From contig CAYPSS010000001.1 in assembly GCA_964413735.1 (NCBI GenBank), positions 246,149-309,697 on the forward strand: DNA of 63,549 nt, written 5' to 3'. Under the pieces are notes generated by a model. The model saw only the letters and a list, made by a program, of their open reading frames with translations. It ran no database searches and had not been told where the DNA came from. Positions 12,196-39,809 of this stretch are shown piece after piece. This DNA comes from an uncultured Gammaproteobacteria bacterium (GTDB lineage Bacteria > Patescibacteriota > Patescibacteriia > UBA11705). A program made the position numbers and the translations under genes. Numbering within the stretch: the stretch's first letter is position 1; each line of letters opens with the position of its first letter.

Positions 12196-12214
12196 ACCAC
12201 GACTTTGTCGTGGT
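12196..12214 (-). terminator. Hairpin ending the minus-strand orphan cassette
   Basis: accacgac-ttt-gtcgtggt with an adjacent A-tract. Confidence 0.7.
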
Positions 12215-12221
12215 AATTTTA

Positions 12222-12674
12222 TTAAGAGATTTCATTTTTGAACATTATATAGCGCAAAGCATGAACGGTTTCTTCATAAGTCATTCGTTTCAGTTTAGCT
12301 AGCATATAGATGAATTCTCGGATTAGATCGGGATTGCAATCTTGGAAATTCATTACTAAGTCTGGTAACCCATTGTCATTTTGATTTTCATTTTCTTCTA
12401 AATGTTGTAATAACAAGTCGGTAATTCGATCTAATTCTTCTTGTGATAATTGCCGAGCACGCAATTGTTGGGGGGTAAGATTTAAGAAAAAACAATTGTG
12501 ACAAAGTTCTTGAGCCGTTTCCAGCGCAACATTGTCCCACTCTGAAGAATCAACTTTTCTTAAAGAATCTAGGGTAGGTTTTAATTCCTCGGTTACCTAT
12601 TCATAACAATATTTCAAATATGAATTACAATCATCAACCATTTGTTCACCACTAATTCTGACTTCTTCGCTCAT
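12222..12674 (-). pseudogene. 150-codon orphan gene interrupted by one in-frame TAG (12597-12599); paralog of 12756-13145
   Basis: ATG 12674 with GAGGGTG RBS is in frame with the 12222-12464 ORF; MSEEVRISGEQMVDDCNSYLKYCYE*VTEELKP...; shares C.F..LTP..L..R..S with its neighbour. Confidence 0.7.
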
Positions 12675-12755
12675 AGTCACCCTCAAAAAGAACTGACTTT
12701 ATCTTGCCACAGTTTAAAGTCATTGTCAATAAAAAAACCGCGATGTGATCGCGGT

Positions 12756-13145
12756 TCAATTTGGAGCATTTGGCATGGAAATCATTTTTAGATCCAGCGC
12801 GTTTAATCCGGCCAAACGATATTTATCAAACATTTGCTTACTGAGAAGCGGAACGATTTGTTGATTATAACCGGCTTTTTCTCGATTGGCTAAAATAAAG
12901 ATTCTGGATGCTTCTTCAAAACAAAATTGACGCAGATCTCGGATGTCGGTTTCGGAAAATGGTCGTTGATTTAATTCATCAGGAGTTAATTGATGAAATT
13001 CACAACAACTTAGTAAAATTTGTAATAAGCAAGCAATTCTTTTTTGTTTTAATGCCGGATTTTCTCCATGATGAGAAAAATGATTTTCCACCCAAGTGGC
13101 TTTGTCAAGGCACATTTGAATTAAAATTGACTTTTCCGGCAACAT
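12756..13145 (-). CDS. Hypothetical protein (paralog of the adjacent pseudogene)
   Basis: Open frame with GAGGTG RBS before ATG 13145; terminator 12736-12756. Confidence 0.7.
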   Translation of the reverse strand: MLPEKSILIQMCLDKATWVENHFSHHGENPALKQKRIACLLQILLSCCEFHQLTPDELNQRPFSETDIRDLRQFCFEEASRIFILANREKAGYNQQIVPLLSKQMFDKYRLAGLNALDLKMISMPNAPN

Positions 13146-13254
13146 GATGCACCTCATTGCTTCAATTAATTAAAGCATATCATTTCCTTTTATGGTTTGA
13201 CAATTAAATTAAATAATGATAAATATTAATATTCCCTAACCAATGGGAGGGAAT

Positions 13255-13605
13255 GTGGAAATTGCAGTTGTGGATAGGTGTTATTGTCGGTATGCGGTGG
13301 AAATTGAATGGCGTAGAAGTAATCGTCCCAGCCAATTGTTCATTTTTAATCTTTCTGATAATGATGTCCCCAGATTTATTTTCGAGGAATTTGAAGGTAA
13401 AGGTTTTCATGAAATGATGGATCGTTATGCTCAGTATGTGGCAATGGAATTTTTGAGTCACCATAATCCTTTGATTCACAATCGTGGCAATGCTTATGTC
13501 CGAAGAGTCTTTCGCGTGGAAGAATTGGTGACGAATCAAAAAGATGTCACCAGAGTCGTATTCAATGTTGACACAACGGATATTACGCCGAAGAAGCAAG
13601 GCTGA
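13255..13605 (+). CDS. Hypothetical protein
   Basis: GGGAGGG RBS before GTG 13255; open frame. Confidence 0.65.
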   Translation: MEIAVVDRCYCRYAVEIEWRRSNRPSQLFIFNLSDNDVPRFIFEEFEGKGFHEMMDRYAQYVAMEFLSHHNPLIHNRGNAYVRRVFRVEELVTNQKDVTRVVFNVDTTDITPKKQG

Positions 13606-13623
13606 TTTTAAGGAGGAGTGGAC

Positions 13624-13962
13624 ATGCGAACCCATAAATATTGTTTAAGAATTTCTTGGAAATCTGATCCCACTAAGACGCATGAATTTTTCTTTTGTGT
13701 TGATGAAGGGGATGTTTTTGATAGCTTGTGGAAGAAGTTTCCAAATGATCGTCAAAAAGCGATTAATGAATATGCCAGAGGATTGGCTAAAGAATTTTTG
13801 GCTCGTGGCTCGGTTCTTCTGCCGAAGCATGGGGAGTTTGATGTTATCGGATTTTTCCATGTTGTTGGTTATAAGAATCTTGACTATGCTGAGCAGGGAC
13901 ATGAGAATGGTGGTTATGAGTTGGAATATTTTATGAGAGAATTGGAGAGGATTGATTGTTAA
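13624..13962 (+). CDS. Hypothetical protein
   Basis: AGGAGG RBS before ATG 13624; terminator 13971-13991. Confidence 0.7.
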   Translation: MRTHKYCLRISWKSDPTKTHEFFFCVDEGDVFDSLWKKFPNDRQKAINEYARGLAKEFLARGSVLLPKHGEFDVIGFFHVVGYKNLDYAEQGHENGGYELEYFMRELERIDC

Positions 13963-14067
13963 AATAATTTACCATCGTTAATAACGGTGGTTTTTTGATT
14001 GACAAAATATATTTATTATGATAATTTGCAGTATTAGTCCTTTAACAACCCTTTAGGGAGGGGAAAC

Positions 14068-14820
14068 ATGCAAGAATTGGAAATGAGTCGAAAATCATGG
14101 GTATTTCGTGGTGGTTTGCTGGGTTGGTATATGGTTAATTTTGATAAACTGGATGAAATTATTAGTAATCCAGATTCGCCGCATAGAATCAAAAGTCATA
14201 AGAATCGTGATTTTACCACTTGTGATTTGTTCTGGGGATGGGTTTTAAATCTTGTTTTTTGGTGGTGGGCTATGACTTTTATGGTAATTTTTATTTCCGG
14301 TATTTTGTTTGCCTTTAGCATGCTTTTTGATATTAGTAGATTTTTGCTTGGTTATCGTCCGAAGTGGGAATTTTTCTTGATGATCAAAAATATTTTCTCG
14401 AAAGATTTTTCTATGGATTATGAGGTTTTCAGTTTTGATAATGCTCGCCCATTGTTTCGAGGAATGAAAAATAGGTTCTTGTATTTGCGTCCGGTTTATT
14501 TGTTGTGTTGGGGGGTGTTTTTGTATGGTATTTTTGTTGATCCGCATTTTGTTGTTCCTTCAATGCCGAGTTTTAGTAATATGCATAATTTTGTTTTTAC
14601 TTTCTCTTTTTTGGTGGTTGTGTTGACGGGAGCATATTTGGTCGGAACATTATGTCGTGAATTAAAAAATTGGATTAATTTGCGACGCTATCTGAAGACG
14701 GCGGCGAAACCTGATTATTCTGAGAATAGGTCTGGAGTTGGTAAAGCTAGGAGTGAGTTGGGGATTATTTGGCGAGCGTTTCATGATCGAACATGTATTA
14801 AGATTAAGGTGACGGATTAA
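14068..14820 (+). CDS. Hypothetical membrane protein (paralog A)
   Basis: Own promoter, leader, RBS and terminator; hydrophobic segments; SRKSW N-terminus and H..TC C-terminus shared with 14950-15660. Confidence 0.8.
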   Translation: MQELEMSRKSWVFRGGLLGWYMVNFDKLDEIISNPDSPHRIKSHKNRDFTTCDLFWGWVLNLVFWWWAMTFMVIFISGILFAFSMLFDISRFLLGYRPKWEFFLMIKNIFSKDFSMDYEVFSFDNARPLFRGMKNRFLYLRPVYLLCWGVFLYGIFVDPHFVVPSMPSFSNMHNFVFTFSFLVVVLTGAYLVGTLCRELKNWINLRRYLKTAAKPDYSENRSGVGKARSELGIIWRAFHDRTCIKIKVTD

Positions 14821-14949
14821 TGTTTTTAAAACCACAGCAAAGTCTGTGGTTTTTTATTTTTAAATGTTATTCTGGAGCATTATTGACAAGATTATGGTTT
14901 TATGATAATTTACGGGGTCAGTCCTTTAACAACCCTTAAGGAGGGGAAA

Positions 14950-15660
14950 ATGAAAAGCATTCAAATCAGTCGTAAATCATGGTTGTTTCGATTGGCGCTG
15001 TGGGGATTTTATGGGTGGAATTGGAATTTGATTGATGAGATCATTGATGATGTTAATCATAAGAAACGATGGTCTTTTCATCGAGGAAGAAACTTCAGTA
15101 CGTGTGACTTGGTTTATGGATTTTTTGCAAGTTTTATTCAGGCTTTTATTCATTTGATTGAACTTATTTTAGTTATATTGATTCTTGTTATTGGGAATGT
15201 AATTTGTTTGGTGATGGATGTTGGGAGGGTATTGTTTGGATATAAGCCGGCTTGGGGTAATATTATATTCACCAAAGATATTTTTAGTAATAATGATAAT
15301 CCAGTTAATGATAGATTTGAATATACTGATGATTGGTTGATGTGGCGTAGCAAGATTTTGGATCTGCGGCCAATTCATGTTTTGGCGGGAGGTTACTTTC
15401 TTTATTTGAAGTATTTTGATAGTAATCCGGGTTATTTCAATCCGCAGAGTATTATCTTGGGAGGATGGGTAGCTTTATTTGCTGGACTTATTTTTTATAT
15501 AACGTTATTTGGTTTGGTAGTTTCTATCATTTATGCTGTGATTATAAAGTATCGTAAGAATCATCCGAAAAAAGTTGCAGAAAACTCACCTTCACTTGTT
15601 AAGGTGGTTTTGCAGTCAGTGCATGAAAAGACTTGTCGGCAGTTGGAAATCAAGGATTAA
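14950..15660 (+). CDS. Hypothetical membrane protein (paralog B)
   Basis: GGAGGGG RBS before ATG 14950; upstream 70 bp similar to those of 14068. Confidence 0.8.
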   Translation: MKSIQISRKSWLFRLALWGFYGWNWNLIDEIIDDVNHKKRWSFHRGRNFSTCDLVYGFFASFIQAFIHLIELILVILILVIGNVICLVMDVGRVLFGYKPAWGNIIFTKDIFSNNDNPVNDRFEYTDDWLMWRSKILDLRPIHVLAGGYFLYLKYFDSNPGYFNPQSIILGGWVALFAGLIFYITLFGLVVSIIYAVIIKYRKNHPKKVAENSPSLVKVVLQSVHEKTCRQLEIKD

Positions 15661-15724
15661 TCTAAAACTCCAGTAAACACTGGAGCTTTTTTAATTTAAT
15701 TAATAATAATTTTATGACCCGCTT

Positions 15725-15857
15725 GTCATTGCGAGGAGCGCAGCAACGTGGCAATCTAAAGGACTCATGGGCAAAACTTTCTCTTAGATTGCCACGAGAT
15801 TTCACTGTGTGAAATCTCTCTCGCAATGAGAAGGGGACCCCCTGAACCTCGCAATGA
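15725..15857. repeat. Nested palindromic repeat element (RPE/REP-like, GTCATTGCGAG...TCGCAATGA)
   Basis: tcattgcga/tcgcaatga outer stem, 13-bp cgtggcaatctaa/ttagattgccacg stem, 10-bp gagatttcac/gtgaaatctc stem, second ctcgcaatga at 15848. Confidence 0.75.
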
Positions 15858-15913
15858 TCGGTTGGGTGTTACTTCTCGCAATTTAGGGGTGTTATGGTCG
15901 CCCGGCCAAATTA

Positions 15914-16924: not shown

Positions 16925-16944
16925 ATTTTTTTTTATTTAATTTT

Positions 16945-22247: not shown

Positions 22248-22249
22248 TT

Positions 22250-23702: not shown

Positions 23703-23804
23703 ATAGCAGTTGACAGAATTATATTTTTTGCTAAAGTAATTGATTCATTGCACCTTGATAATCATACCAAACGATTTTTGCCAACCCTTCAAAAGGAGAA
23801 ATAA

Positions 23805-24023
23805 ATGGAATTATTTATCGCCTTTCTTGTGGTTGTGATGTATGTTGTTGTTGGGTTTATTGTTGCTTTGTTACTCAAGGAATCAATTAATGAAGCTAAA
23901 CAATTGGACATTCCATTGATTAAGTCGCCTTTATTTTGTATTACTTCCATTGTTGCCTTGATTCTGATTGTTTTAGTGGTTAAATTTATCTATGCTTCTT
24001 TTGTGTACTTTTCTGGTGGTTAG
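23805..24023 (+). CDS. Small 2-TM protein (KSPLF family)
   Basis: AGGAG RBS; two hydrophobic helices around LIKSPLF. Confidence 0.75.
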   Translation: MELFIAFLVVVMYVVVGFIVALLLKESINEAKQLDIPLIKSPLFCITSIVALILIVLVVKFIYASFVYFSGG

Positions 24024-24044
24024 CTATAACCGGGGAGGAGAGAA

Positions 24045-24278
24045 ATGGATACATTTATCAATTGGCTTTTTATTGTTCTTATGTTGCTTGTTTCTTTATT
24101 TATTGTTTATTTCATGATTAGGACTATCAGTTTTATGATTAAACAAGAGAAAAAAACAACAACCTCAATTTTGAAATCCCCGTTATTTTGGTTGGGTATG
24201 TTTATTTGCACACTATCGGCAATCGCTGTGCTTAAGGGTCTAGGTAGTTTATTAGCATCTTACTTGAATATCGGGTAA
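24045..24278 (+). CDS. Small 2-TM protein (KSPLF family)
   Basis: GGAGG RBS; ILKSPLF motif. Confidence 0.75.
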   Translation: MDTFINWLFIVLMLLVSLFIVYFMIRTISFMIKQEKKTTTSILKSPLFWLGMFICTLSAIAVLKGLGSLLASYLNIG

Positions 24279-24300
24279 TCCTTTAACCGGAGAAAGGAAG

Positions 24301-24516
24301 ATGTTGAAAACCATTTTGTTTTTGTTTGCATTGACTGTTGTAGGTGGAATGTTGTTTATGGTTTTTAACAGTATTCGTCAAGATTCAAAAAGTGGGGTTG
24401 TGTATATTTTCAAAAATCCGAATTTTTATTTGCTGGTCATTATCTTTTTATTTTGGCTTTATGGGGTATTTACTGTAATTCAAGATTTGGTAGCGTATTT
24501 TTTAAGGGTAAGTTAA
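24301..24516 (+). CDS. Small 2-TM protein (KSPLF family)
   Basis: RBS; IFKNPNF motif; terminator 24521-24541. Confidence 0.75.
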   Translation: MLKTILFLFALTVVGGMLFMVFNSIRQDSKSGVVYIFKNPNFYLLVIIFLFWLYGVFTVIQDLVAYFLRVS

Positions 24517-24613
24517 TTTGAAGTCTGATAACATCAGACTTTTTTTATTTTGGCTTAATTGACAATTTTTATGATTATGGTAAATTAACGGGCGGTCGTA
24601 TGGAGAGTCAGCC

Positions 24614-24874: not shown

Positions 24875-24884
24875 GGAGGAGTCA

Positions 24885-27108: not shown

Positions 27109-27185
27109 AATATTAATATAACATGAAATTGACAGCTGTTTAATTACTTGTTAAATTTTAAGTGTTCTTTTCAATGAGGTCAAGC

Positions 27186-27536: not shown

Positions 27537-27672
27537 ATAATGATTTGTCAATCAAATCTACTTGCCAGCCACGACTGGTATTTTTTATTTGCAGTTTTTA
27601 TTGCTGATAAAAAATTGACAAAGAAACTATTAATTGTTAAATTGAAAGCGTTCTTTCCAAATGAGGGTAGTA

Positions 27673-28071
27673 ATGGCTGACTCAACAGATTTTGATGCTT
27701 TGTTTGGTGAAAAACCAAAGGGGATTGAATTTCCTGATTTCCGTTGTCGTGTTTGCGGTCATGATAAATACTTTCCGATTCATGAAGTAGTGGGACCAGT
27801 GGTCTTGGGGCGTAATACTTGGAAAGTTTCTGGTTATGAGTGTTGTAAATGTAGTTCTCGATTTGCTGATCCGCGAAAATTCAGTTGGCCAGTTGAAGGT
27901 CAACATGATTCCGGAGATGAGTCAGTAGTTGATATTTTGGTCGATGGTGAGTTTGATCCGAAGGAGCATGATCAAATTGCTCAGGAAATTAAAGCTTCTC
28001 CATCGGGAAATTTGCGCGAGCGTTTGGGGCGAGCTAAACCAAAGTTAGGGAAAACAGAAATTGAAGATTAA
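27673..28071 (+). CDS. Zinc-ribbon protein (paralog B)
   Basis: CRVCG...CCKC; GAGGG RBS before ATG 27673; terminator 28083-28103. Confidence 0.75.
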   Translation: MADSTDFDALFGEKPKGIEFPDFRCRVCGHDKYFPIHEVVGPVVLGRNTWKVSGYECCKCSSRFADPRKFSWPVEGQHDSGDESVVDILVDGEFDPKEHDQIAQEIKASPSGNLRERLGRAKPKLGKTEIED

Positions 28072-28208
28072 TGAAAACTTTTAATACCAGAAAATCTGGT
28101 ATTTTTTATTTCAGGCAATTATTTCAACATTTGAGAAAATCGCACATGATTGACTTTTATTGTAATTAATTATAATATGGCAATGCTCTAGTCTTTGTGG
28201 GGGTCAGA

Positions 28209-28754
28209 ATGAAAAGAAGTATCAGTTTGGTTTTGTTGGTGGGAGTGATTGTTCTTTTATTGCCTTTTTCATCACAAGCTTGGTTGAATGCGGAAGGGGA
28301 TTTGCTGGATTGGCAGGATTCGAGTCATGAATGCTGGCCGGATCATATTCAAAATAGCATTGTTGACTTTGATTTTTGGTTGAATAATGTTTATTCTCCG
28401 TATGCTCGAAAGTTGGCGGTTGGCAAGTTTGTTGATTTTGAATGGACGCCGGATGGTTGGGCGGATACTTGTGGAGAAAATTGTTACTGGTTATTTGTGG
28501 CTGATGCTGATGGAGTTTTGTCTTTCTATGTCTCGAGTGGTGATAATCAACCGCTTCCTCCTGGTCGAACCATTTATACTACGCCGACCTTGAATCATTT
28601 TGAGCTTTTCCAAGGAATGGTGGTGACGGATATTAATTTTCGGCAATTTTTTTTCTTGGGATTTGAATCAGATCAAGCATTAGTGCAAGAGTTGGTAGAT
28701 ATTTTGAATGTTCAAATGCCTTTTGTTCGTTTGGAAACCGTTTATATTTTTTAG
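28209..28754 (+). CDS. Hypothetical secreted protein
   Basis: Signal peptide MKRSISLVLLVGVIVLLLPFSSQA; terminator 28761-28781. Confidence 0.72.
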   Translation: MKRSISLVLLVGVIVLLLPFSSQAWLNAEGDLLDWQDSSHECWPDHIQNSIVDFDFWLNNVYSPYARKLAVGKFVDFEWTPDGWADTCGENCYWLFVADADGVLSFYVSSGDNQPLPPGRTIYTTPTLNHFELFQGMVVTDINFRQFFFLGFESDQALVQELVDILNVQMPFVRLETVYIF

Positions 28755-28783
28755 TGGAATAATACCAGAAAATCTGGTATTTT

Positions 28784-31366
28784 TTATTTTAAATAACGGC
28801 GTAAATATTTTCCTGTTTCACTGAATCCATTGCGGGCAATATCAGCCGGTGTGCCAATGGCGACAACTTGCCCACCTTCTTGGCCACCGCCCGGCCCCAA
28901 GTCAATAATCCAATCCGCACATTTAATGACATCCAAATTATGTTCAATCACCATTACCGTATTGCCTTGAGAAGTTAATTGTTGGAGAACATCAATTAAT
29001 TTTTTCACATCTTCATAATGCAAGCCGGTAGTTGGCTCATCAAGCAAATATAAAGTTTTAGTGGTGCCGCGTTTGGCCAGTTCTTTGCTCAGTTTGGTGC
29101 GTTGGGCTTCACCACCTGAGAGTGTTTTGGCTGATTGTCCCAAAGTTAAATAATCCAACCCAACATTATTCAAGATTTTTAATTTTTCATAAATAAACGG
29201 AATGTCGCGAAAAAAAATTTCCGCTTCGGCAATGGTCATGTTTAATACATCGGCAATATTTTTATTTTTGTAATGAACTTGCAAGGTTTCTTTGTTAAAT
29301 CTTTTGCCTTTGCAAATTTCACATTGCACCTCTACGCTTGGAAGAAAATGCATTTCAATTTCCAAGGAACCGCGCCCCTCGCAATGTTCACAGCGTCCAC
29401 CGGCGCGATTAAAACTAAAACGACCGGGACGATAACCGCGAATGCGCGCTTCCGGTGTACTGGCAAAAAGTTCACGAATATAACTCCAAACACCGGTATA
29501 GGTGGCCGGATTGGAACGCGGGGTGCGACCAATTGGATTTTGATCGATTTTAATCACTTTATCCAAATATTCCAGTCCTTTTATTTCCCGATGCGTTCCA
29601 ACTGGTCGGCGTAAACGGAATAATTTATTTTTTAGTGCTTGATACAAAATATCATGCATTAAAGTTGATTTTCCTGACCCCGATACTCCAGTTAAACAAA
29701 CTAGGCGCTTCAAAGGAATTTCCACATTAATATTTTTTAAGTTATGTTCTTTGGCGCCTAAAATTTTCAATTTCAAAGTTTTGTCTGTGACACTACGAGT
29801 TTCTTTTGGCAGAGGAATTCTGATTTCATTTCGTAAATATTTGCCGGTCAAAGAATTTTTCGGATCGCCAATGATTTGAGTGGTGATTGATTTTTCGGAA
29901 TTATTTTTCTTAGGATTTAATAAATAATCAAGTGGTCCGGAATAAACTACTTGACCCCCGTTAACACCAGCGCCCGGACCAATATCCACGATCCAATCAC
30001 TGGTTAAAATTGTGTCTTCATCATGTTCCACCACAATGATGGTGTTACCAATATCACATAGATTGCGCAAGGTATTAACCAGTTGCTCATTGTCTTTTTG
30101 ATGTAGTCCAATCGTGGGTTCATCGAGAATATACATCGCGCCAACTAATCTTTGACCAATTTGTGAGGCCAAACGAATACGTTGTGCTTCACCACCGGAA
30201 AGAGTGCCTGATTTGCGATTTAAAGTTAAATAATGCAAACCAACATCAAACATAAAATTCAAACGATTGCGAATTTCGTTGATAATCACATCGGCAATTT
30301 CATGTTGTTGAGCGTTTAGATGATTTTGAAGATTTTCAAAAAATTCACGACTTTGTTTAACTGTTAGGGCGGTTAATTCCCAGATGTTTTTATTGTTGAT
30401 TTTTACACTTAGAGCATTTTTGTTTAATCGTTTTCCTTCACAAACCGGACAAACTTCATCACTAAATAGATCTTTGGTTCCCAGCCCCGTACATTGTTCA
30501 CAATATCCATAAGGACTGTTAAAACTGAATAAGCGCGGTTCAATTTCCGGAAAACTAAAACCATCGATTGGGCAAGAGTATTCAGTGCTAAAAGTTTTTT
30601 CTTCTCCATCGGGTAAAATCGTTGTACATAAACCATTGGCCAAATCAATGGCTTTTTCAATGGCTTCGGCCAAGCGCATTTCACTGCCTTTTTTCATCCC
30701 TTCCACTTGAAACTCTTCCAAACGATATTTATCAATGACAATTTCGATAGTGTGTTTTTTGTGTCGTGCCAAATCAATTCGATTTTGTAATTTATAAAAT
30801 TTCCCATCAATGCGCGCTTCCAAAAATCCGGAATTGTAAATATCATAAAGCATTTGGTAATATTCGCCCTTGCGACCACGAACCATGGGGGATAAAATAA
30901 TAATTTCATTGTTTGGTTGGTTCTGGTTTTTGTTGATTTCTTGTAAAATAAAATCGGTCATCTCTTGGCTGGTAGACTTTTCCAGTTTGGTGCCATCCTT
31001 TGGACAATGTGGGGTACCGATTTTAGCAAACAAGACGCGCAAATAGTCGTAAATTTCCGTAATGGTGGCAACCGTTGATCGTGGATTGGAGCTATGTGCT
31101 TTTTGATCAATGGAAATAGCGGGCGATAATCCGGAAATTTCGTCCACATTGGGTTTTTGCAGTCCGCCCAAAAATTGTCGGGCGTAAGCCGATAAACTTT
31201 CCAAATATCGTCTTTGGCCTTCGGCAAAAATCGTGTCAAAAGCCAAGCTCGATTTGCCTGAACCTGATAGTCCGGTGAAGACAATCATTTTGTTTCTTGG
31301 CAATTCCAAATCAATATTTTTCAAGTTATGTTCTCGCGCACCTTTGATAATAATTTTATCTTGCAT
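28784..31366 (-). CDS. uvrA: Excinuclease ABC subunit A (860 aa, insertion domain largely deleted)
   Basis: GAREHNLK, two Walker A motifs (GLSGSGKS, GVSGSGKS), LSGGEAQR twice, LDEPT twice. Confidence 0.97.
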   Translation of the reverse strand: MQDKIIIKGAREHNLKNIDLELPRNKMIVFTGLSGSGKSSLAFDTIFAEGQRRYLESLSAYARQFLGGLQKPNVDEISGLSPAISIDQKAHSSNPRSTVATITEIYDYLRVLFAKIGTPHCPKDGTKLEKSTSQEMTDFILQEINKNQNQPNNEIIILSPMVRGRKGEYYQMLYDIYNSGFLEARIDGKFYKLQNRIDLARHKKHTIEIVIDKYRLEEFQVEGMKKGSEMRLAEAIEKAIDLANGLCTTILPDGEEKTFSTEYSCPIDGFSFPEIEPRLFSFNSPYGYCEQCTGLGTKDLFSDEVCPVCEGKRLNKNALSVKINNKNIWELTALTVKQSREFFENLQNHLNAQQHEIADVIINEIRNRLNFMFDVGLHYLTLNRKSGTLSGGEAQRIRLASQIGQRLVGAMYILDEPTIGLHQKDNEQLVNTLRNLCDIGNTIIVVEHDEDTILTSDWIVDIGPGAGVNGGQVVYSGPLDYLLNPKKNNSEKSITTQIIGDPKNSLTGKYLRNEIRIPLPKETRSVTDKTLKLKILGAKEHNLKNINVEIPLKRLVCLTGVSGSGKSTLMHDILYQALKNKLFRLRRPVGTHREIKGLEYLDKVIKIDQNPIGRTPRSNPATYTGVWSYIRELFASTPEARIRGYRPGRFSFNRAGGRCEHCEGRGSLEIEMHFLPSVEVQCEICKGKRFNKETLQVHYKNKNIADVLNMTIAEAEIFFRDIPFIYEKLKILNNVGLDYLTLGQSAKTLSGGEAQRTKLSKELAKRGTTKTLYLLDEPTTGLHYEDVKKLIDVLQQLTSQGNTVMVIEHNLDVIKCADWIIDLGPGGGQEGGQVVAIGTPADIARNGFSETGKYLRRYLK

Positions 31367-31696
31367 ATTTCGAATTGTTATTTTATTAGTTATAAATTAC
31401 GAATTATCTTTTTTGTATGGATGATTGATGAAAAGTAATCATTAAAATATGAAATCCATTATACGTAATACGTTATACAAATTATATTTTAGAATTTAAT
31501 TTTTATAATTAATCGTTTCTTTTACTCTTTATAAGCCAAAATGCCCGCCTAAAGCTTTTTATTAGGGGGGTAGTAAAGGGGTTAATTGTCTGATCAGCAT
31601 AACATGGAGTTTTAAAAATGTAAATGGCCCTAATCTTGACATTTATGAAAACATGGGATAAAATATTTATTTGTATTCCTTAAACAGGAGAAGCAA

Positions 31697-32017
31697 ATGC
31701 TTGGTTCTTCGAAAAATACATTGAAAGATGAAATGACGGTTGAATATGTTAATCCTTTTTCGCACAAGGTGGGTGAATTTTTCTTTGTCTTGGTTTCCAC
31801 GTCAGTGTTGTTTTTCATGTTGCTGTTTGGTGTGCCTCAGATCGGTTTGCCGGTTTTGATTGTTGGTATTTTGTTGTATTTGGTCCCGGGTTTTTTGAGT
31901 AATTGGACTTTTTCACCAATCACTTTTCTGCTCATTTATTTGGGAGTTATTTGGTTAGTGACAATGGGGTATGTCTTTTGGCGTTGGTATCATTATGGTA
32001 AGGGGCCTTGTTTGTAA
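31697..32017 (+). CDS. Hypothetical membrane protein
   Basis: TTGACA promoter, CAGGAG RBS, 3 TM segments, terminator 32023-32049. Confidence 0.72.
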   Translation: MLGSSKNTLKDEMTVEYVNPFSHKVGEFFFVLVSTSVLFFMLLFGVPQIGLPVLIVGILLYLVPGFLSNWTFSPITFLLIYLGVIWLVTMGYVFWRWYHYGKGPCL

Positions 32018-32087
32018 AAAATAAAATCGTTGTTAATGACAACGATTTTTTGTATAAAAAAATCACCATATTATGGTGATTGCATTA

Positions 32088-32543: not shown

Positions 32544-32552
32544 TTTCTCTCC

Positions 32553-33459: not shown

Positions 33460-34518
33460 TTAATTGATTTTAGGGTCTTCAATATTGAATTCTTCAAAGC
33501 GGCCTTTAATAAAGGGTAAAATTTCATAAGCACCATACAATTTGATACTTTCGTCGTTTAATTCACAAGTTCGGTATAAGTGCATAACTTCAGAATCAGT
33601 CATTAGACAAAGGAAAAGCAGAGCTAATTCATCATCTTTGAAATATTGCCAAAGGAGTTCAGAAACTATACGGAGAATTATGGGGGCATTTTTTTGATTG
33701 CACTTGTCGTAAATCGTATACATTAAACGTTTTAAGATTGCAAACTGCTGAGCGGTTTCCGAAGTTTTGAAAAGCACTTTATTTGCTTTAGCTGATTCTT
33801 CGCATAAAGCATTTACACAAGTGGCGATTCGTTCGCGTTGCGTTGCCCCGAAAAACTTTAATAATTCATTGATTCCCGGATAACTTTCAATTGATAGTTT
33901 CTGCCAGCGCTCAAAGATATCATTAATATCAGCAAAAACATAAGCGATTTTATCTGCATACATAACCAGATTCGCTTCCATCGGAGTACCATCAAAAACA
34001 ATATCTAAATCTCCGGCCCCGCGTGAATGCAGCAAAATACCTTGTAATACTTGTCTGGTTAAATTTAATCCTTTTCCTTGTCTCTCAATCATTTGACAAA
34101 TAACAACACCAAATTTTTCATGCCGAAAATCAATACCATGACTTTCGCTGATGAAATTTTCTCCCGCATGACCAAAGGGAACGTGTCCTAAGTCATGTCC
34201 CAAAGCCATGGCAAAAGCCAGATCAGTATTTAATCCCAAATTTTCTGCTATTGCACATGCAACATTAGCTACTTCCAAGGTGTGTGTTAGGCGATTACGA
34301 ATATGCATATTCAAAAATCCGGTAAAAACTTGGGTTTTGTTTTCCAGTCGCCGAACAGCTTTACTGGGCATAATTTTATGAACAGCATCAACGAAAAATG
34401 GACGCTGATTGATTGGCGTAAGGGATTCATCAATATCCGATTCAATATACGTTCGTTTTGCTTCTTCATCGGGGAAAGCAAATTCTTTCAAAGCTTGAAA
34501 ATATGAAGGTTTACTCAT
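33460..34518 (-). CDS. HD-domain dNTP triphosphohydrolase (Dgt-like)
   Basis: RRLENKTQVF, RNRLTHTLEV, GHDLGHVPFGHAGE, YADKIAY; GGAGG before ATG 34518. Confidence 0.85.
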   Translation of the reverse strand: MSKPSYFQALKEFAFPDEEAKRTYIESDIDESLTPINQRPFFVDAVHKIMPSKAVRRLENKTQVFTGFLNMHIRNRLTHTLEVANVACAIAENLGLNTDLAFAMALGHDLGHVPFGHAGENFISESHGIDFRHEKFGVVICQMIERQGKGLNLTRQVLQGILLHSRGAGDLDIVFDGTPMEANLVMYADKIAYVFADINDIFERWQKLSIESYPGINELLKFFGATQRERIATCVNALCEESAKANKVLFKTSETAQQFAILKRLMYTIYDKCNQKNAPIILRIVSELLWQYFKDDELALLFLCLMTDSEVMHLYRTCELNDESIKLYGAYEILPFIKGRFEEFNIEDPKIN

Positions 34519-34624
34519 TTTTCCTCCTTGGTTGATAAAGAACAATGTGTTCTAAGGTTAATAAAAAAATTAAATTTTGTCAAAATAAAAAACATTTGTT
34601 AAACGCAAATGTTTTTATTGTAAA

Positions 34625-36655
34625 TTATTTTTTTGCTTTGAGAACCGTGATTTCATCGCGCAGAATGGCCGCTAGTTCAAATTCCAAATTTTTTGCCGCT
34701 TGTTTCATTAATTTTTCTTTCTCGGTAATTATTTCTTTTATCGAACGTTTGTCAGCTTGTAATTCCAATTTAAGATTTTCTCTGGCTAAATTACGACGAT
34801 AGGATTGGCCGGATACTTTTTTGGTTTCTGGAAGAGTTAACCCGAAATCTGCTAAAATGTTTTTTATTTGTTTTTCAATGGTTTTTGGTGTGATTCCATG
34901 TTTTTTATTATAAGCCAGTTGTTTGGTGCGTCGGCGGTCAGTTTCTTGCAGGGCATTTTTTATCGAGGTGGTAATGACATCAGCATAAAGCAAAACCCGA
35001 CCATCAACATTACGCGCCGCGCGACCGATCGTTTGAATTAAACTGGTTTCATTGCGCAAAAATCCTTCTTTGTCCGCATCTAAAATCGCCACCAGTGATA
35101 CTTCGGGAATGTCCAAGCCTTCTCGTAATAAATTTACGCCAACAATCACATCAATCACTCCTTTTCTCAAATCAGTAATAATCTGAATTCGTTCGAGCGT
35201 TTCAATGTCCGAATGAATATAAGTGACTTTGATCTTTTTTTCTTTTAAATAATCGGATAAATCTTCGGCCATGCGTTTGGTTAAAGTGGTGACTAAGGTT
35301 CGCTTATTGTTCTTTACTTGTAATTCAATTTCTTTGATTAGATCGTCAATTTGAGAAGTATTTTTCTTGGTGGCAATAATCGGTCGTACAATAACCTTTG
35401 GATCCACCAATCCGGTGGGACGAACGATTTGCTCCACAATTTGCTCACTGACGGTCAATTCATAATCAGCCGGTGTGGCAGAAGTGTAAATTACTTTTTT
35501 TGTTTTTTGGTCAAACTCTTCAAAAGTTAAAGGTCGATTATCGCGAGCGCTTGGTAAACGAAAACCATGTTCAATTAAAGATTGTTTACGTGATTGATCG
35601 CCATGATACATGGCGCGAATTTGCGGGATAGTGACATGTGACTCATCTATGACTGTTAGGAAATTCGGATCGCAGAAATTAAAATATTCCAGTAATGAAT
35701 AAGGCGGTTCGTGATTGGTGCGTCCTTCGAAATGAGCGGAATAATTTTCAATGCCATTGCAATAACCGATATTTTCGATCATTTCCAAATCATAATTGGT
35801 GCGTTGTTTTAATCTTTCATATTCTAAAGTTTTTCCTTGTTTCTTGAATTGGGCCAATTGATTTTTTAGTTCATTTTTAATGGCTGACAAGGCGCGTTTT
35901 TTATTTGGTTCACTTAAAACATAATGTTTGGCCGGAAAAAGCCAAAGATCGGGTTGTTCACCGATAATTTTACGTGATACAGGTTCAATTTTTTTGATGT
36001 TGTCGATTTGCTCAGTAACTTCTAGACGGTAGATATTTTCTTCATTGACGGGCATAATTTCTAATACTTGTCCGGTTTTTCGGAAATAACCACGCTTTAA
36101 ATCCGCATTGGTGCGTTCGTAATACATCCCGGTAAGTTTTTCAATTACGGCCAAATGATTTAGCTTTTGCCCTACAGCAAAATGAAGTACTTCGTTTTCA
36201 TATTCACGCGGATTACCCAAGGCGTAAATTGCGGATACCGAAGCTACAACAATGACATCTTTTCGTGATAGTAAAGCTTGAGTACAAGCGTGGCGCAAGC
36301 GATCGATTTCTTGATTAATGGAAGACTCTTTCTCTATGTAAGTATCTGAATTTGGTAAGTAAGCTTCTGGTTGATAATAATCGTAATAGGAAACAAAATA
36401 TTCCACCGCATTGTCTGGAAAAAACTCACGGAATTCATTACAAAGTTGGGCGGCCAAGGTTTTGTTGTGGGCAATTACTAAAGTGGGTTTTTGTACTTGT
36501 TCAATAACATTGGCAATGGTAAAAGTTTTCCCTGAACCGGTAACGCCAAGTAAGGTTTGTTTGGCCAAACCTTTTTTTAACCCGGAAACCAATTCTTTAA
36601 TCGCTGTTGGTTGATCACCGGCCGGTTGATATTTTGCTTGTAGTTTGAATTTCAT
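34625..36655 (-). CDS. uvrB: Excinuclease ABC subunit B
   Basis: GDQPTAI, LGVTGSGKTF, YYDYYQPEAY, DESH, NLLREGLD, C-terminal UVR domain. Confidence 0.98.
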   Translation of the reverse strand: MKFKLQAKYQPAGDQPTAIKELVSGLKKGLAKQTLLGVTGSGKTFTIANVIEQVQKPTLVIAHNKTLAAQLCNEFREFFPDNAVEYFVSYYDYYQPEAYLPNSDTYIEKESSINQEIDRLRHACTQALLSRKDVIVVASVSAIYALGNPREYENEVLHFAVGQKLNHLAVIEKLTGMYYERTNADLKRGYFRKTGQVLEIMPVNEENIYRLEVTEQIDNIKKIEPVSRKIIGEQPDLWLFPAKHYVLSEPNKKRALSAIKNELKNQLAQFKKQGKTLEYERLKQRTNYDLEMIENIGYCNGIENYSAHFEGRTNHEPPYSLLEYFNFCDPNFLTVIDESHVTIPQIRAMYHGDQSRKQSLIEHGFRLPSARDNRPLTFEEFDQKTKKVIYTSATPADYELTVSEQIVEQIVRPTGLVDPKVIVRPIIATKKNTSQIDDLIKEIELQVKNNKRTLVTTLTKRMAEDLSDYLKEKKIKVTYIHSDIETLERIQIITDLRKGVIDVIVGVNLLREGLDIPEVSLVAILDADKEGFLRNETSLIQTIGRAARNVDGRVLLYADVITTSIKNALQETDRRRTKQLAYNKKHGITPKTIEKQIKNILADFGLTLPETKKVSGQSYRRNLARENLKLELQADKRSIKEIITEKEKLMKQAAKNLEFELAAILRDEITVLKAKK

Positions 36656-36660
36656 ATAGT

Positions 36661-36905
36661 TGGGGAATAGGGAATAGGGATTAGGGATGAAAAATGTTGT
36701 TATTATGTATTTATTGTTCCTTTCTTGCTTGTCTAACTTGTCACGCTTGTCTTACTCGTCTTACTTTTCTTGCTTATCATTTCCTCCAATAATTCGTACA
36801 TTCGTAGCAATTCGTAATTCGTAGTCTTAGTGTTTCTCGCTTTCTTACTTACTACTTTAATACTTGTCTTACTTACTACTTCTTTCGCTTATCTCGCTTC
36901 CTTCC
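36661..36905. repeat. Patch of short tandem repeats (gggaata/gggatta; ttcgta-core; cttact/cttgtc types)
   Basis: ggggaatagggaatagggattaggga; ttcgtacattcgtagcaattcgtaattcgtag; many tcttact/cttactt copies; strongly strand-biased. Confidence 0.75.
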
Positions 36906-37014
36906 AATTTTATCACATTAATATAAGTCAGTCATTTGTTTTGTGCAAGTCTGCCTATTGATTAAGATTAAAAATATTGATAAATTGCTTTATTCTCCAT
37001 AACGGAGGAGGAGA

Positions 37015-37353
37015 ATGATCGTAGCAATTGCGATTTTGGGTGGAGCGGCTATGTTTTTCCTTTTCCTAAGTCTGATTTCATTAATTTTAACAATTTCCAT
37101 TCGTGATTTGAATCAAGTTGGTTTGATAGGCTTCGGTATTGCGGTTTGTATTTCTGTTGTTCTTTTAATTCCGGTTTATGTTTTAGCTATTTCTGCTGGT
37201 GCCAGTTTGTGGACTATTATTATTGGTGCTTTTGCTATGGCCACTCCGATTTTTTTGCTTTTACTTAATTTTACTGGATGGGTTTTTCCCTTGTTCCTTG
37301 TGGGCTATCTGGCTCAAATTACTTTGTTTGTTTTAGCTCTATTGAAGGTGTAG
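37015..37353 (+). CDS. Hypothetical 4-TM membrane protein
   Basis: GGAGGAGG RBS; almost entirely hydrophobic; terminator 37364-37386. Confidence 0.75.
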   Translation: MIVAIAILGGAAMFFLFLSLISLILTISIRDLNQVGLIGFGIAVCISVVLLIPVYVLAISAGASLWTIIIGAFAMATPIFLLLLNFTGWVFPLFLVGYLAQITLFVLALLKV

Positions 37354-37452
37354 TTATAAATTCACAATCGCTTAATAAGCGATTGTTTTTTTTGTATAAA
37401 AAAAACCACTCAATTTGAGTGGTAACTTTGTAGTTGTTATAACTGTATGAAG

Positions 37453-37929
37453 TTAGTTTAATTCTCCCTTAATAAAATTGTTTGAAGTGTCTACAGCTTC
37501 CCCAAGGTGAACAATCTGAGCCATGGTAGCCAGCGCTTTGGGTGTTTTTGATTTAATCCTGATATTTTTGTTTGGAGTAATTTTTACCGCAATCCAGTAA
37601 ACAGTGTCACCACCAATCAAAGGGCTTCTCTTTTCTGTTTGATAAAAAACAACTTTCCAAGCAGTATTATCGGAGATTCGAATGAATTTTTCGCCAACTT
37701 GGCAACTACCAGGAACCAAAACTCGTTCGCATGGTTCATTGATTCCGGTACCAAAGGGTAGGCAATCTCTGGGCCATGGTTGTCTTTCGTATCCAAACGC
37801 ATCTAACAAAGTATTAACAGCCGTAAAATTAATTGTCCAAATTTCGGTATTTTTTGCTTGTAGGCGGTTAATCATTCTGTCATAAGCATCCTTGATATCA
37901 ACAATTGGTGTATTTGTTTTACGGGGCAT
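37453..37929 (-). CDS. Hypothetical protein
   Basis: AGGAGG before ATG 37929; terminator 37405-37423. Confidence 0.72.
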   Translation of the reverse strand: MPRKTNTPIVDIKDAYDRMINRLQAKNTEIWTINFTAVNTLLDAFGYERQPWPRDCLPFGTGINEPCERVLVPGSCQVGEKFIRISDNTAWKVVFYQTEKRSPLIGGDTVYWIAVKITPNKNIRIKSKTPKALATMAQIVHLGEAVDTSNNFIKGELN

Positions 37930-38085
37930 AAGACCTCCTTGTTTTAAGGAACAGAGAATAGTTAAAGTTAACAATTTTAAAACTTTTTGTCAAGGATTTA
38001 GATTGTTGTTTTTATGATTCTTATTTCTTTAATAATTTGGTCGAGAATTTTTAATAAAAAAACCACTCAATTTGAGTGGTTGGGT

Positions 38086-38412
38086 TCATTCTGGTTCAGG
38101 AACATTCAACCCTCGGGCGTAGAGGGTGAGCGTTCCCAGATTATCTGGCAAAGTGATGATGACTTTTTCCATCGAAAAATCGATTTCCAAGTCATCTTTA
38201 TCAACTTCGATAGTCCCCACATCATTTTCGAACGATTCCCAGCGCTTGGTACGCCGGTTGAATCTCTCGGAATATGAGGTGGAGAATTCCAGATGTTCCC
38301 CATGATCCGCAATCGCACACAGCGGACCGCGGAAAATATCACCATCTTCAATCAAAATCATCATTCCACCAATGAAATTCATGCAATTTTCCATCATTTT
38401 GTGCCAGGCCAT
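38086..38412 (-). CDS. Hypothetical protein, four-member tandem family
   Basis: G.M..E...FRGPL...W...KD...P..G pattern; GAGGG RBS. Confidence 0.75.
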   Translation of the reverse strand: MAWHKMMENCMNFIGGMMILIEDGDIFRGPLCAIADHGEHLEFSTSYSERFNRRTKRWESFENDVGTIEVDKDDLEIDFSMEKVIITLPDNLGTLTLYARGLNVPEPE

Positions 38413-38508
38413 ATGACCCTCACTTGCTTGGGGAAAGGGACTATTTAATATACACTATTATTATTTATTTGTCAATAGCAAAAAACATCGCTTGGCGATG
38501 TTTGTTTT

Positions 38509-38853
38509 TTAATAACGTTGGGCTAATGCTGTTTGTTGTTCAGCCGGAAGTTTATTTCTGGGAATAATGATAGCACTACCATAATAGGGAGCAGCAATGC
38601 GAATTCGACCATTAGGCATCTCATGACAGGCAAAGAAATCCTTGGCAATCGCAATGGCAATTGCCGGTTTTTCAAAAAACTCCCATTGTCTTTTGGCGCT
38701 ATTCAAGACTTCACTCCACTGCAATTTGATTTTAATTACAGTGCGATTGGTTTCAACCCCACCAATCAACGCGCGGTAAATTGTGCTACCTTCAGAATAT
38801 TGAATAATACCACCGGCCAAATTTTGATTTTCAATAAATTCATTGGTTGTCAT
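38509..38853 (-). CDS. Hypothetical protein, four-member tandem family
   Basis: MTTNEF..., AKDFF, PYYG; GGAGGG RBS before ATG 38853. Confidence 0.78.
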   Translation of the reverse strand: MTTNEFIENQNLAGGIIQYSEGSTIYRALIGGVETNRTVIKIKLQWSEVLNSAKRQWEFFEKPAIAIAIAKDFFACHEMPNGRIRIAAPYYGSAIIIPRNKLPAEQQTALAQRY

Positions 38854-38865
38854 GTTCCCTCCGAT

Positions 38866-39385
38866 AGTTGGAGAACTAGGTAGTTTATAAAATATATAAT
38901 TATTTGTCAATCATAATGAAAAAACATCGCTTGGCGATGTTAATTATTTTATGGTTGTTTCATGTGGTCTTGCATTTGTGGTGAAAGGCTTGCCAGTTTG
39001 GTAACTTTTACGCTTCCCAGGTGAGGAATGGCAAAGGTCAGTTGTCCCTTTTCATTAATGCTACAAACAAAGAAATCCTTGGCCACAGCAATTACCAGGG
39101 GGTTTCCGGAACTTCTGTGCCATAATTCATTCTTAGAGTCTGGCACTTCCACCCAGCGCAACTTAATGGTGATAATACCTCTTTTACAGGAAATTTCAGC
39201 AATTGGTCCGCGATAGGTAATCCCAAATTCGTTATAGACCATTAACGCTCCAATTAACTCACGATCTTTCAAAAATTCATCAGCTGTCATTATTTCCCTC
39301 CGTTGGTTGGAGAACTTTGTAGTTTATGAAATATTTAATTTTTTGTCAACCATAATGAAAAAACATCGCTTGGCGATGTTAATTA
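38866..39385. repeat. Duplicated 80-bp intergenic module (terminator, promoter, leader); partial third copy at 38470-38503
   Basis: gttggagaact...ttgtcaa.cataatgaaaaaacatcgcttggcgatgttaatta at 38866-38945 and 39305-39385. Confidence 0.88.
38949..39290 (-). CDS. Hypothetical protein, four-member tandem family
   Basis: MTADEF..., YRGPI, VAKDFF, IPHLG. Confidence 0.78.
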   Translation of the reverse strand: MTADEFLKDRELIGALMVYNEFGITYRGPIAEISCKRGIITIKLRWVEVPDSKNELWHRSSGNPLVIAVAKDFFVCSINEKGQLTFAIPHLGSVKVTKLASLSPQMQDHMKQP

Positions 39386-39386
39386 A

Positions 39387-39695
39387 CTAAATATTTTTAC
39401 TGCTAAACGTAGCAATTCCAATATGGGGAATACTAATAATGATTTTATGACCTTCAACACGTGGTTGAGAAAAGTCTTTGGCTACAGAAAATTCTTTGGT
39501 AATAGAATTTTTGGTGGTAACTGACGCTCTCTCTTCAATTTTTTGGGATTGTGTCCTACTGCGTCCCACAATAGTAATAATGCCATTGTGCTCAGTGATT
39601 TCAGTTAATAGATAAGCGGTGGTCTTCCCGTTTTCTTCCCAAAGAAATGCTTGATGGCGTAAAGCTTTATTATCAATCAATTCTTGCCAAGTCAT
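39387..39695 (-). CDS. Hypothetical protein, four-member tandem family
   Basis: GIITI, VAKDF, IPHIG shared with its neighbours. Confidence 0.75.
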   Translation of the reverse strand: MTWQELIDNKALRHQAFLWEENGKTTAYLLTEITEHNGIITIVGRSRTQSQKIEERASVTTKNSITKEFSVAKDFSQPRVEGHKIIISIPHIGIATFSSKNI

Positions 39696-39809
39696 CTTCC
39701 TTCCTTTTGTTAAAGAATATTGATAAATTAACTCATATTTCCATATTTGTCAATGCTGTCTGTTCCATACATATGATATAATTAATATATAAATAATAAT
39801 TGAAATAAA

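Follow-up and report, generated by a model that had tools for sequence, protein, structure and literature searches.

Recombining tandem paralogs are found, for example, in the vlp and vsp surface-protein families of Mycoplasma. The lpl and ssl clusters of Staphylococcus aureus, reportedly described by Tsuru and Kobayashi in 2008 in Mol Biol Evol, are likewise said to be tandem paralog clusters shaped by unequal homologous recombination. Here we analyze a 63,549-nucleotide stretch of contig CAYPSS010000001.1 from a small uncultured bacterium (hereafter the window), in which about 24 orphan genes of unknown function stand between housekeeping genes as promoter-to-terminator units or short operons. 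We think that these are probably autonomous transcription units of lineage-specific accessory genes, turned over by unequal and allelic homologous recombination. As in tandem paralog clusters, diverged paralogs lie next to each other, noncoding or 5′ segments are conserved, copy number and gene content vary between strains, and junctions are hybrid. Unlike in those clusters, each copy is a complete promoter-to-terminator unit whose regulatory module, not its coding sequence, is conserved. The products are also heterogeneous (membrane, secreted, and cytosolic), the host belongs to the Candidate Phyla Radiation (CPR), and no phase-variation element was seen.

A second comparison is with phage morons, which usually have a deviant base composition. 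According to Hendrix and colleagues, and to Juhala et al. in 2000, morons are said to be additional genes between conserved phage genes, each with a promoter and a factor-independent terminator of its own. The orphan units resemble them in being self-contained units of promoter, open reading frame (ORF), and terminator between conserved syntenic genes, present or absent between close relatives. They differ in that they lie on a bacterial chromosome beside ribosomal, Uvr, ribonucleotide reductase (RNR), and superoxide dismutase (SOD) genes rather than in a prophage, match no PHROG, equal their neighbors in composition, and are mostly local paralogs, not independent imports.

Integron cassettes are promoterless, share one orientation, and stand behind a single attI/Pc platform, with the gene for an IntI-type tyrosine recombinase adjoining the array. 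Their attC sites are imperfect palindromes of 57–141 nt with R''/L''-L'/R' boxes (RYYYAAC ... GTTRRRY) and extrahelical bases. The orphan arrays share with integrons that small ORFs of mostly unknown function are split by short palindromes and that their content varies between strains, and the original prediction for this stretch had proposed an integron-like reservoir. Unlike in integrons, neither IntI nor attI or attC was found in the window, the units occupy several loci in both orientations, and the junctions point to homologous recombination. Short intergenic palindromes recurring behind different genes also recall repetitive extragenic palindromes (REP) and REPIN–RAYT systems. Here identical copies occur in adjacent units only, not dispersed, and they carry T-runs and are predicted to be 3′-end terminators. 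Pfam scans of the orphans and of the other unannotated ORFs found no RAYT-like domain in the window and, in agreement with the original prediction, no integrase or transposase.

Architecture of the orphan units

The window has a GC content of about 36%. Its core genes include a ribosomal-protein operon, the genes for EF-G, EF-Tu, RNR, SOD, Fur, and peroxiredoxin, uvrA, uvrB, and uvrC, and a split ComEC. Among 185,579 species representatives, the closest UvrA matches (70–72% identical) come from Candidatus Magasanikbacteria and other metagenome-assembled genomes of Patescibacteria. Judged by these matches, the host is a CPR bacterium (Patescibacteria) related to Magasanikbacteria and without a close species representative. 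CPR genomes, although small, hold a large fraction of genes without known function. If our explanation is right, part of this “dark” gene set is organized as insulated, individually promoted units.

The orphan units occupy at least six separate places between core genes, on both strands. Almost every orphan start is preceded, 55–60 nt upstream, by a predicted near-consensus promoter (TTGACA-N16/17-TAnnnT) of the sigma-70 type, with a −10 box that is TAAATT-like and often carries a TG extension. The predicted transcript begins with a leader of about 20–35 nt, which opens with a pyrimidine box (GTTCTYY or TTCCTT) followed a few bases downstream by a strong Shine–Dalgarno (SD) site, GGAGG. Directly after the ORFs, behind nearly every unit, stand hairpins with near-perfect GC-containing stems of 19–27 nt and loops of 3–7 nt followed by a T-run, many of them common to a convergent core gene. 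Terminator-like sites number 26 between 12 and 32 kb, against 16.8±3.5 expected from shuffles, and 22 between 31.5 and 41.5 kb, against 8.6±3.4. The orphan hairpins are thus best described as predicted ordinary Rho-independent (intrinsic) terminators.

The TTGACA promoters, GGAGG sites, and hairpins with T-runs listed in the original prediction are all present where it had placed them. Its statement that each gene carries its own promoter holds for each gene or short operon, as a TTGACA-type promoter lies upstream of each unit. We also found the short gaps that it had quoted between a hairpin and the next promoter in tandem runs (13991 to 13999 and 24542 to 24559; on the minus strand 12735 to 12729 and 38483 to 38475). 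GC content is nearly the same in orphans (0.366) and core genes (0.367), and their relative synonymous codon usage correlates at 0.80–0.89. By these measures the composition of the orphans is native to the genome.

Paralogy and shared regulatory modules

The orphan ORFs had been described as unrelated to each other. All-against-all BLASTP among the orphans contradicts this description and indicates that most runs are diverged tandem paralogs (O3/O4, O5/O6, M1–M3, Z1/Z2, and P1–P4; coordinates are given below). O5 and O6 are 28% identical at the amino acid level (E=2e-28), Z1 and Z2 49% over 71 aa (E=7e-28), and P2 and P3 33% (E=7e-21), with P1 and P4 aligning to both. Matches within O3/O4, M1/M2/M3, and P1/P2 are weaker, and homology was not established for O1/O2 or M6/M7.

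What the units have in common is mainly regulatory. Intergenic and leader modules are 69–88% identical at the nucleotide level between paralogs, against 44–55% for coding sequence, which amounts to saturation. Since the coding sequence is saturated and the modules are not, selection, gene conversion, or both appear to have preserved the likeness of the modules. Substantial homology between units is found only there. One alignment between units extends over 94 nt at 87.5% identity, and together with exact repeats of 30 nt it shows that the similarity is not due to chance.

All four sets of hairpins that had been reported to recur behind different genes are present. The hairpin aataccagaaaatctggtatt occurs at 28083 and 28761, where 28082–28111 and 28760–28789 are identical over 30 nt (100%). 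The hairpin accactcaa(a)ttgagtggt occurs at 37405 and 38062, behind P0 and P1, whose 21-nt stem-loops are identical within a 91% match over the surrounding 33 nt. A third, aacatcgc(c/t)..gcgatgtt, is found at 38483, 38923, and 39362, and a fourth, ctgataa(c/t)atcag, at 24520, 25387, and 25831, where the three M terminators are 76–82% alike. The P-array hairpin AACATCGCCAAGCGATGTT, common to three units, lies in an intergenic module of 92 nt with a period of 439 nt. Identical hairpins within the window are confined to adjacent units, with two to three copies 439–680 nt apart. Most of the repeated hairpins can hence be explained by the fact that neighbors are diverged paralogs. Searching JGI metagenome contigs for AACATCGCCAAGCGATGTT gave 22 single matches on unrelated contigs (35–63% GC), none similar to the window; we rejected these as chance matches rather than real relatives.

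None of the orphans has a match above threshold in Pfam, PHROGs, or PADLOC. The O5/O6 family comprises seven clusters in 5.8 billion proteins and is confined to the species-level population. For the P family, a word-indexed search also gave seven clusters, and a full profile scan gave 52 remote representatives of about 100–130 aa, one of which (P0023) lies on an 813-nt contig. The AlphaFold2 model of P3 is a small beta-barrel (pLDDT, the predicted local distance difference test score, is 90.6). Its Foldseek comparison with the PDB gave weak Sm/SH3-like barrel matches only (best E=0.04, TM-score <0.55), and no function was called. The ratio of nonsynonymous to synonymous substitution rates (dN/dS) of the orphans ranges from 0.21 to 0.71 where it could be measured. 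Because of these ratios, the confident P3 model, and the remote P-family relatives, we conclude that the orphans are real genes. Judged by eye, M1–M7 encode two-helix membrane proteins, O5/O6, T1, and T2 polytopic membrane proteins, Z1/Z2 Cys-rich proteins, S1 a secreted protein (hydrophobic N-terminus), and the P family cytosolic barrels. Their role probably lies in cell-envelope or interaction functions under diversifying selection.

Gain and loss of whole units among close strains

We compared the window with near-identical strains in Logan assemblies from about 10 sequencing runs, which were reached through homology searches with orphan families. Outside a few islands these strains are about 99.2–99.6% identical to the window. 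Exact-protein look-ups for UvrC, Prx158, and a PP2C-like protein returned no contig, and for g288 only contigs shorter than 1.6 kb.

Stable synteny of the orphans had been named as a sign that would speak against modular gain and loss, and the strains give a divided answer. All contigs covering M1–M6, Z1, Z2, S1, T1, T2, and g151 have these units in synteny, many at 99–100% identity. For example, M1–M3 are 99–100% identical and syntenic in nine Logan contigs, one per run (L083–L091), Z1 is syntenic in six samples, and T2 is 100% identical in SRR19732722 (L081). The whole units O5 (884 nt), M7 (440 nt), and P3 (439 nt), on the other hand, are absent in near-identical strains.

In SRR29243433 (L099), which lacks O5, the O5 promoter is kept and the sequence switches to that of O6 within the common 16-nt leader AGTCCTTTAACAACCC. 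M7 is missing in six samples, in which the left flank is 99.0–99.8% identical. It is flanked by an imperfect 63-nt direct repeat (25372–25434 and 25812–25874) that includes the terminator hairpin as well as the final codons of the convergent uvrC. P3 is missing in SRR19732722, where the remaining intergenic module resembles the P4–P3 module on its 5′ side and the P3–P2 module on its 3′ side. This strain also has an extra P-family unit, Pa, upstream of P4, and its P4 ortholog is about 81% identical at the nucleotide level. Another extra unit in relatives, a 198-aa gene of 27% GC, separates ruvA from the U32 peptidase gene. A TTGACT promoter and a terminator accompany it, an SD site is lacking, and at this position the window has a 39-nt gap only (6467–6505). 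This unit looks like a moron-type foreign insertion.

The three mapped junctions are hybrid repeats at three places: one inside the leader, one past the −10 box but ahead of the leader, and one where the 63-nt terminator repeat ends. None is hairpin-specific. Because the three junctions fall at three module places, they argue for homologous (unequal) recombination and not for a hairpin-specific enzyme. Hence, the idea of modular units that are gained or duplicated is supported by three whole-unit absences and two extra units, but the unknown route invoked for it is dispensable, as ordinary recombination suffices. The alignment of close strains, which had been suggested as a check, does find units absent as a whole, with junctions in leader, terminator, or intergenic modules instead of breakpoints specific to the hairpins.

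These junctions also bear on an integron-like or other site-specific cassette system, in which the hairpins would be sites for a recombinase encoded elsewhere and units would be captured and excised. Such a system would gain and lose units whole, it would accommodate identical hairpins behind ORFs without detectable similarity (Z2/S1 and P0/P1), and its recombinase could lie outside the window, which covers about 20% of the 318,699-nt source contig. We nevertheless find it hardly credible. Two of the three mapped junctions lie outside the hairpin, identical hairpins occur in adjacent units only, and integrase and transposase domains are missing from the window. The hairpins have neither the length nor the asymmetry nor the GTTRRRY core of attC; their stem ends (e.g., TTAACATCG...CGATGTTTTTT), read directly, do not fit this motif, and their T-runs come directly after stop codons. 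In addition, each unit has its own promoter, and units are scattered over several places and both strands with no common platform. We would therefore put a testable mechanism, homologous recombination between regulatory modules, in place of the integron-like reading.

Identity between strains forms a mosaic, with tracts above 99% beside tracts of 74–94%; a background of 99.2% contains islands of 53–92%. Low-identity islands lie at 27363–27562 (mid-Z1), 33562–34700 (HD-domain gene), 37351–38243 (3′ end of T2 to mid-P1), and 38894–39908 (into the DUF1653 gene). The boundaries of these divergent alleles are not tied to modules and often lie inside genes. The question of whether breakpoints fall at random with respect to the modules, raised in the original prediction, therefore has two answers: whole-unit junctions fall inside modules, whereas divergent alleles can also end inside genes. 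The M7 insertion/deletion coincides with a drop in identity from 99.6% to 94% and hence marks the end of a recombination tract. Very divergent core-like alleles in strains that are about 99% identical indicate that the population is strongly recombining. Frequent allelic exchange fits both the mosaic and the presence of a ComEC gene. Uptake through ComEC followed by recombination at shared modules had been proposed before; the uptake gene is indeed encoded in the window and the mosaic fits frequent homologous exchange, but recombination is not targeted to the hairpins.

Single core-like loci illustrate the range of strain differences. femAB and ruvA are 77% identical at the nucleotide level in SRR29243433, which is otherwise about 99% identical. 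The HD-domain gene (33562–34700) is 74% identical in SRR19732722 and 100% identical in SRR36368349. A 706-aa unknown protein has a 410-nt internal insertion/deletion between strains. Together these loci lie at 4796–6506, 8222–8633, and 33562–34700. ComEC itself is split into two ORFs with a 4-nt overlap, a Competence/DUF4131 part (3229–4575) and a metallo-beta-lactamase part (2390–3232).

Under the explanation we favor, the arrays would have grown mainly through tandem duplication of whole units. Coding parts would then have diverged to saturation and regulatory modules would have stayed alike. The modules could serve as dispersed homology for RecA-type unequal crossover, through which whole units are deleted, duplicated, or swapped, and strains would also exchange alleles, plausibly via natural transformation. 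The terminator would insulate each unit from the flanking core genes. A dedicated site-specific recombinase would not be needed. Regulatory modules that double as recombination substrates would be a simple, enzyme-free means of gain, loss, and swap between strains that are about 99% identical.

Shine–Dalgarno sites in orphans and core genes

A new point, and the one worth following up, is that the accessory genes are SD-led and the core genes SD-less. For the 24 orphans and the 55 annotated core genes of the window, the 20-nt stretch before the start was scored for pairing with the 16S anti-SD sequence (the host 16S gene lies outside the window), and sites of −6 kcal/mol or better were called strong. 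Strong SD sites precede 22 of 24 orphans but only 4 of 55 core genes (Fisher's exact p ∼2e-13), the four being EF-Tu, L24, HAD272, and HD352. Operon position is not the cause, because the operon-internal orphans M2, M3, M5, M6, and O4 have SD sites, whereas promoter-proximal core genes (ndk, fur, uvrA, uvrB, uvrC, an RNR gene, rpmB, adk, and rpsL) have AT-rich SD-less leaders or are probably leaderless. Of the 42 GGAGG sequences, 16 stand at most 15 nt ahead of a start codon, about 39-fold above expectation, and the motif hence behaves as a real SD site. The pyrimidine box (TYCYYY, e.g., GTTCTCC or TTCCTT), a few bases upstream of the SD site, is found in 14 of 24 orphans and 5 of 55 core genes (p=8e-6). 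The window has two exact copies of the 12-mer TTCCTTAAAACA, each in a pyrimidine-box leader (P0 and HAD272).

Nearly all ribosomal-protein and other core genes are SD-less (e.g., 41107–57192). Several of them, such as fur and uvrC, have a −10 box 6–7 nt ahead of the ATG, which would fit leaderless mRNAs.

One could also argue that there is nothing distinctive about the orphans, and that we merely see the normal grammar of promoter, ribosome-binding site, and terminator of this genome on short monocistronic genes. Core units (tRNA-Pro, ndk, the S12 operon, adk, fur, and uvrC) have sigma-70-type promoters too, and core genes also end in hairpin terminators. The difference in SD use, which holds irrespective of operon position, and that in pyrimidine-box use make this argument very unlikely to be correct, and so do the exact repeats and the long alignment between units, which go beyond chance.

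Distinct expression signals could instead reflect foreign origin. The orphans would then be moron-like modules acquired horizontally from phages, plasmids, or SD-using bacteria and inserted by transformation and homology-facilitated illegitimate recombination. Their SD sites and strong promoters do set them apart from the core genes, which are SD-less, no relative with about 70% UvrA identity has them, the M7 insertion/deletion sits where the 99.6%-identity tract ends, and relatives carry the 198-aa promoter-and-terminator unit that the window lacks. Yet this unit, the one clearly foreign-looking case with its 27% GC, is without an SD site, whereas the orphans match the core genes in GC content and codon usage. 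Matches to PHROGs, PADLOC, or Pfam above threshold are missing, the O5/O6 family does not extend beyond the species-level population, the word-indexed search for the P family likewise found seven clusters, and most units are local paralogs of their neighbors. Overall, import seems unlikely to us as a general explanation, although less so than the cassette system or the absence of anything distinctive.

The SD split did not reappear in 11 loci of relatives with about 70% UvrA identity, where 16% of conserved and 13% of unique ORFs have SD sites by the crude ORF calling used there. Because SD use is low in both classes of ORFs in these relatives, the split appears to be specific to the lineage of the window. 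An anti-SD motif is undetectable in roughly half of the Parcubacteria 16S rRNA genes sampled (PMC9297842). SD-led accessory genes next to SD-less core genes bear on how Parcubacteria-type CPR ribosomes select start sites. It is possible, although we put this forward only tentatively, that there are two regimes of translation initiation: core genes that are SD-less or leaderless, and a fast-evolving accessory set that is SD-led and has a 5′ pyrimidine “anti-SD” box. The module would then both mark a separate regulon and give homology for shuffling. If true, such a regulon could be gated, for example, by SD occlusion or by how available the 16S anti-SD sequence is. The pyrimidine box is able to pair with the SD site and, by reading, lies at the predicted 5′ end of the transcript. 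The leader might thus partially occlude the SD site or stabilize and protect the 5′ end, a suggestion that comes from the motif.

Several observations weigh against recombination between shared modules as a full explanation. The SD split lies outside what it accounts for. S1, T1, T2, P0, and g151 have no detectable paralog within the window. Z2 and S1 share an identical 30-nt terminator but have dissimilar ORFs and promoters, which fits poorly with duplication and divergence. For M7, the relatives' single copy of the 63-nt repeat is of the “left” type throughout, so that loss by deletion would require crossing over within the final 11 or so identical bases, and either gain or loss could have occurred. 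Promoters, transcription starts, and termination are predictions only. Finally, the leader hairpins reach minimum free energies no better than shuffled sequences do (z from −1.7 to +0.9), and for this reason SD occlusion is no firmer than the motif makes it.

The individual units

O1 (12196–12729, minus strand) has its −35 box TTGACA at 12729–12724, its ORF at 12684–12222, and a terminator (12214–12196) common to the convergent rlmN-like gene. The ORF is broken by an in-frame TAG at 12609–12607, where close strains have TGG (Trp) and an intact ORF of 150 aa. By comparison with these intact copies, O1 is a recent nonsense pseudogene in the window strain. It has no Pfam family above threshold; a match to TnsA_C (E=0.0095) was below the cut-off and dismissed. 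O2 (12735–13203, minus strand), with a −35 box TTGTCA at 13203, the SD site GAGGTG, an ORF at 13148–12756 (130 aa), and a terminator at 12757–12735, matches nothing in Pfam, PHROGs, or PADLOC.

The remaining O units lie on the plus strand. O3 and O4 form a two-gene unit (13199–13991) with a −35 box TTGACA at 13199. O3 runs from 13243 or 13255 to 13605, and the gene call in relatives puts its start at a GTG after GGGAGGG. O4 (13624–13962) is preceded by AAGGAGGAG and followed by the terminator at 13971–13991. O5 (13999–14853) has its promoter at 13999, the leader AGTCCTTTAACAACCC followed by GGGAGGGG, an ORF for a 250-aa membrane protein (14068–14820), and a terminator at 14828–14853. O6 (14883–15685) has the same promoter and leader module as O5, an ORF at 14950–15660, and a terminator at 15668–15685.

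The M genes, also on the plus strand, form two operons and a single unit. M1–M2–M3 (23710–24542; promoter at 23710, terminator at 24520–24542) encode proteins of 71–77 aa that look like two-helix membrane proteins, each ORF with its own SD site. M4–M5–M6 (24559–25411) encode small membrane proteins of 81–86 aa; their promoter, at 24559, lies 17 nt past the previous hairpin, and their terminator is at 25387–25411. M7, the 440-nt insertion/deletion (25435–25874), has its promoter at 25492, a 91-aa ORF at 25549–25824, and a terminator at 25831–25851. UvrC (25810–27108) is only 432 aa long, with a similar length in CPR relatives, and its last 14 or so codons cross the convergent M-gene terminator hairpin. 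The M7 unit alters the UvrC C-terminus in the window strain, which is about 10 residues longer than in close strains.

Three further plus-strand units follow uvrC. Z1 (27129–27580) has its promoter at 27129, an ORF for a Cys-rich protein of 116 aa with CxxC motifs (27186–27536), and a terminator at 27563–27580; its dN/dS is 0.27 and its 3′ half is a divergent allele among strains. Z2 (27615–28103) consists of an ORF at 27673–28071 and a terminator at 28083–28103. S1 (28150–28781) has a TTGACT promoter at 28150, an ORF at 28209–28754 (181 aa), and a terminator at 28761–28781 that also ends the convergent uvrA.

T1 and T2, again on the plus strand, encode membrane proteins of 106 and 112 aa. T1 (31636–32049) has its promoter at 31636, the leader TTCCTTAAACAGGAG, its ORF at 31697–32017, and a hairpin at 32023–32049. 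This hairpin, on the coding strand, was taken from the sequence by reading, as the terminator scan scored the opposite strand only. T2 (36958–37386) has a −35 box TTGATT at 36958, the leader ATTCTCC..GGAGGAGG, its ORF at 37015–37353, and a terminator at 37364–37386.

The P units are on the minus strand. P0 (37405–37993), with its −35 box at 37993, the leader TTCCTTAAAACAAGGAGG, an ORF at 37929–37453 (158 aa), and a terminator at 37423–37405, is present in a relative as a divergent allele (83% nucleotide identity, dN/dS 0.28). The P family follows with P1 (38061–38475; 108 aa, ORF 38412–38086, terminator 38081–38061), P2 (38483–38910; 114 aa, ORF 38853–38509, terminator 38503–38483), P3 (38923–39349; 113 aa, ORF 39290–38949, terminator 38941–38923, in the 439-nt period), and P4 (39362–39752; 102 aa, −35 box at 39752, ORF 39695–39387, terminator 39380–39362).

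Distant relatives and noncoding elements

The order uvrB–uvrA–uvrC is kept in relatives with about 70% UvrA identity, and each lineage has different genes in between. Among these are lipoprotein-like ORFs and pairs of small genes that we read as toxin–antitoxin pairs; in one relative (L064) uvrA and uvrC are directly adjacent. Given the kept order and the lineage-specific genes within it, the gaps between core genes are long-term accessory slots.

Besides tRNAs, Rfam detected no known RNA family in the window. A GC-richer element of about 214 nt (15700–15913) with internal CTCGCAATGA repeats separates the O6 terminator from the stop codon of the RNR beta-subunit gene. It folds into multiple stems (z=−5.2 on the plus and −4.8 on the minus strand) and has no Rfam match. 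The element is present in the window and in the Logan contigs L084 and L085; L083, whose flank is 99.5% identical, has a 45-nt hairpin instead. That the L084 and L085 contigs both begin inside the element hints at a multi-copy repeat, perhaps a small mobile or structured-RNA element.

Hairpins at 12146–12176 and at about 1255–1300 of L083 share the loop TTCGACAGGCTCA and stand behind different genes. The stems around this loop differ in a compensating way, ATGTCATGC/GCATGACAT in the window and TTGTCACCC/GGGTGACAA in L083. A common loop with a covarying stem suggests a small functional hairpin element.

Exact 55-nt direct repeats occur at both window ends (1–55 equals 171–225, and 63402–63456 equals 63495–63549), each adjoining tRNA genes. 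They look like an assembly artefact linked to k-mer size and not like biology.

About 300 nt of noncoding sequence (36660–36950) extend from the uvrB start to the T2 promoter. This region shows strong strand asymmetry, is conserved in a close strain, and contains short tandem repeats: GGGAATA in 3.6 copies, TCTTACTTG in 5.9 copies, and a 17-mer in 1.9 copies.

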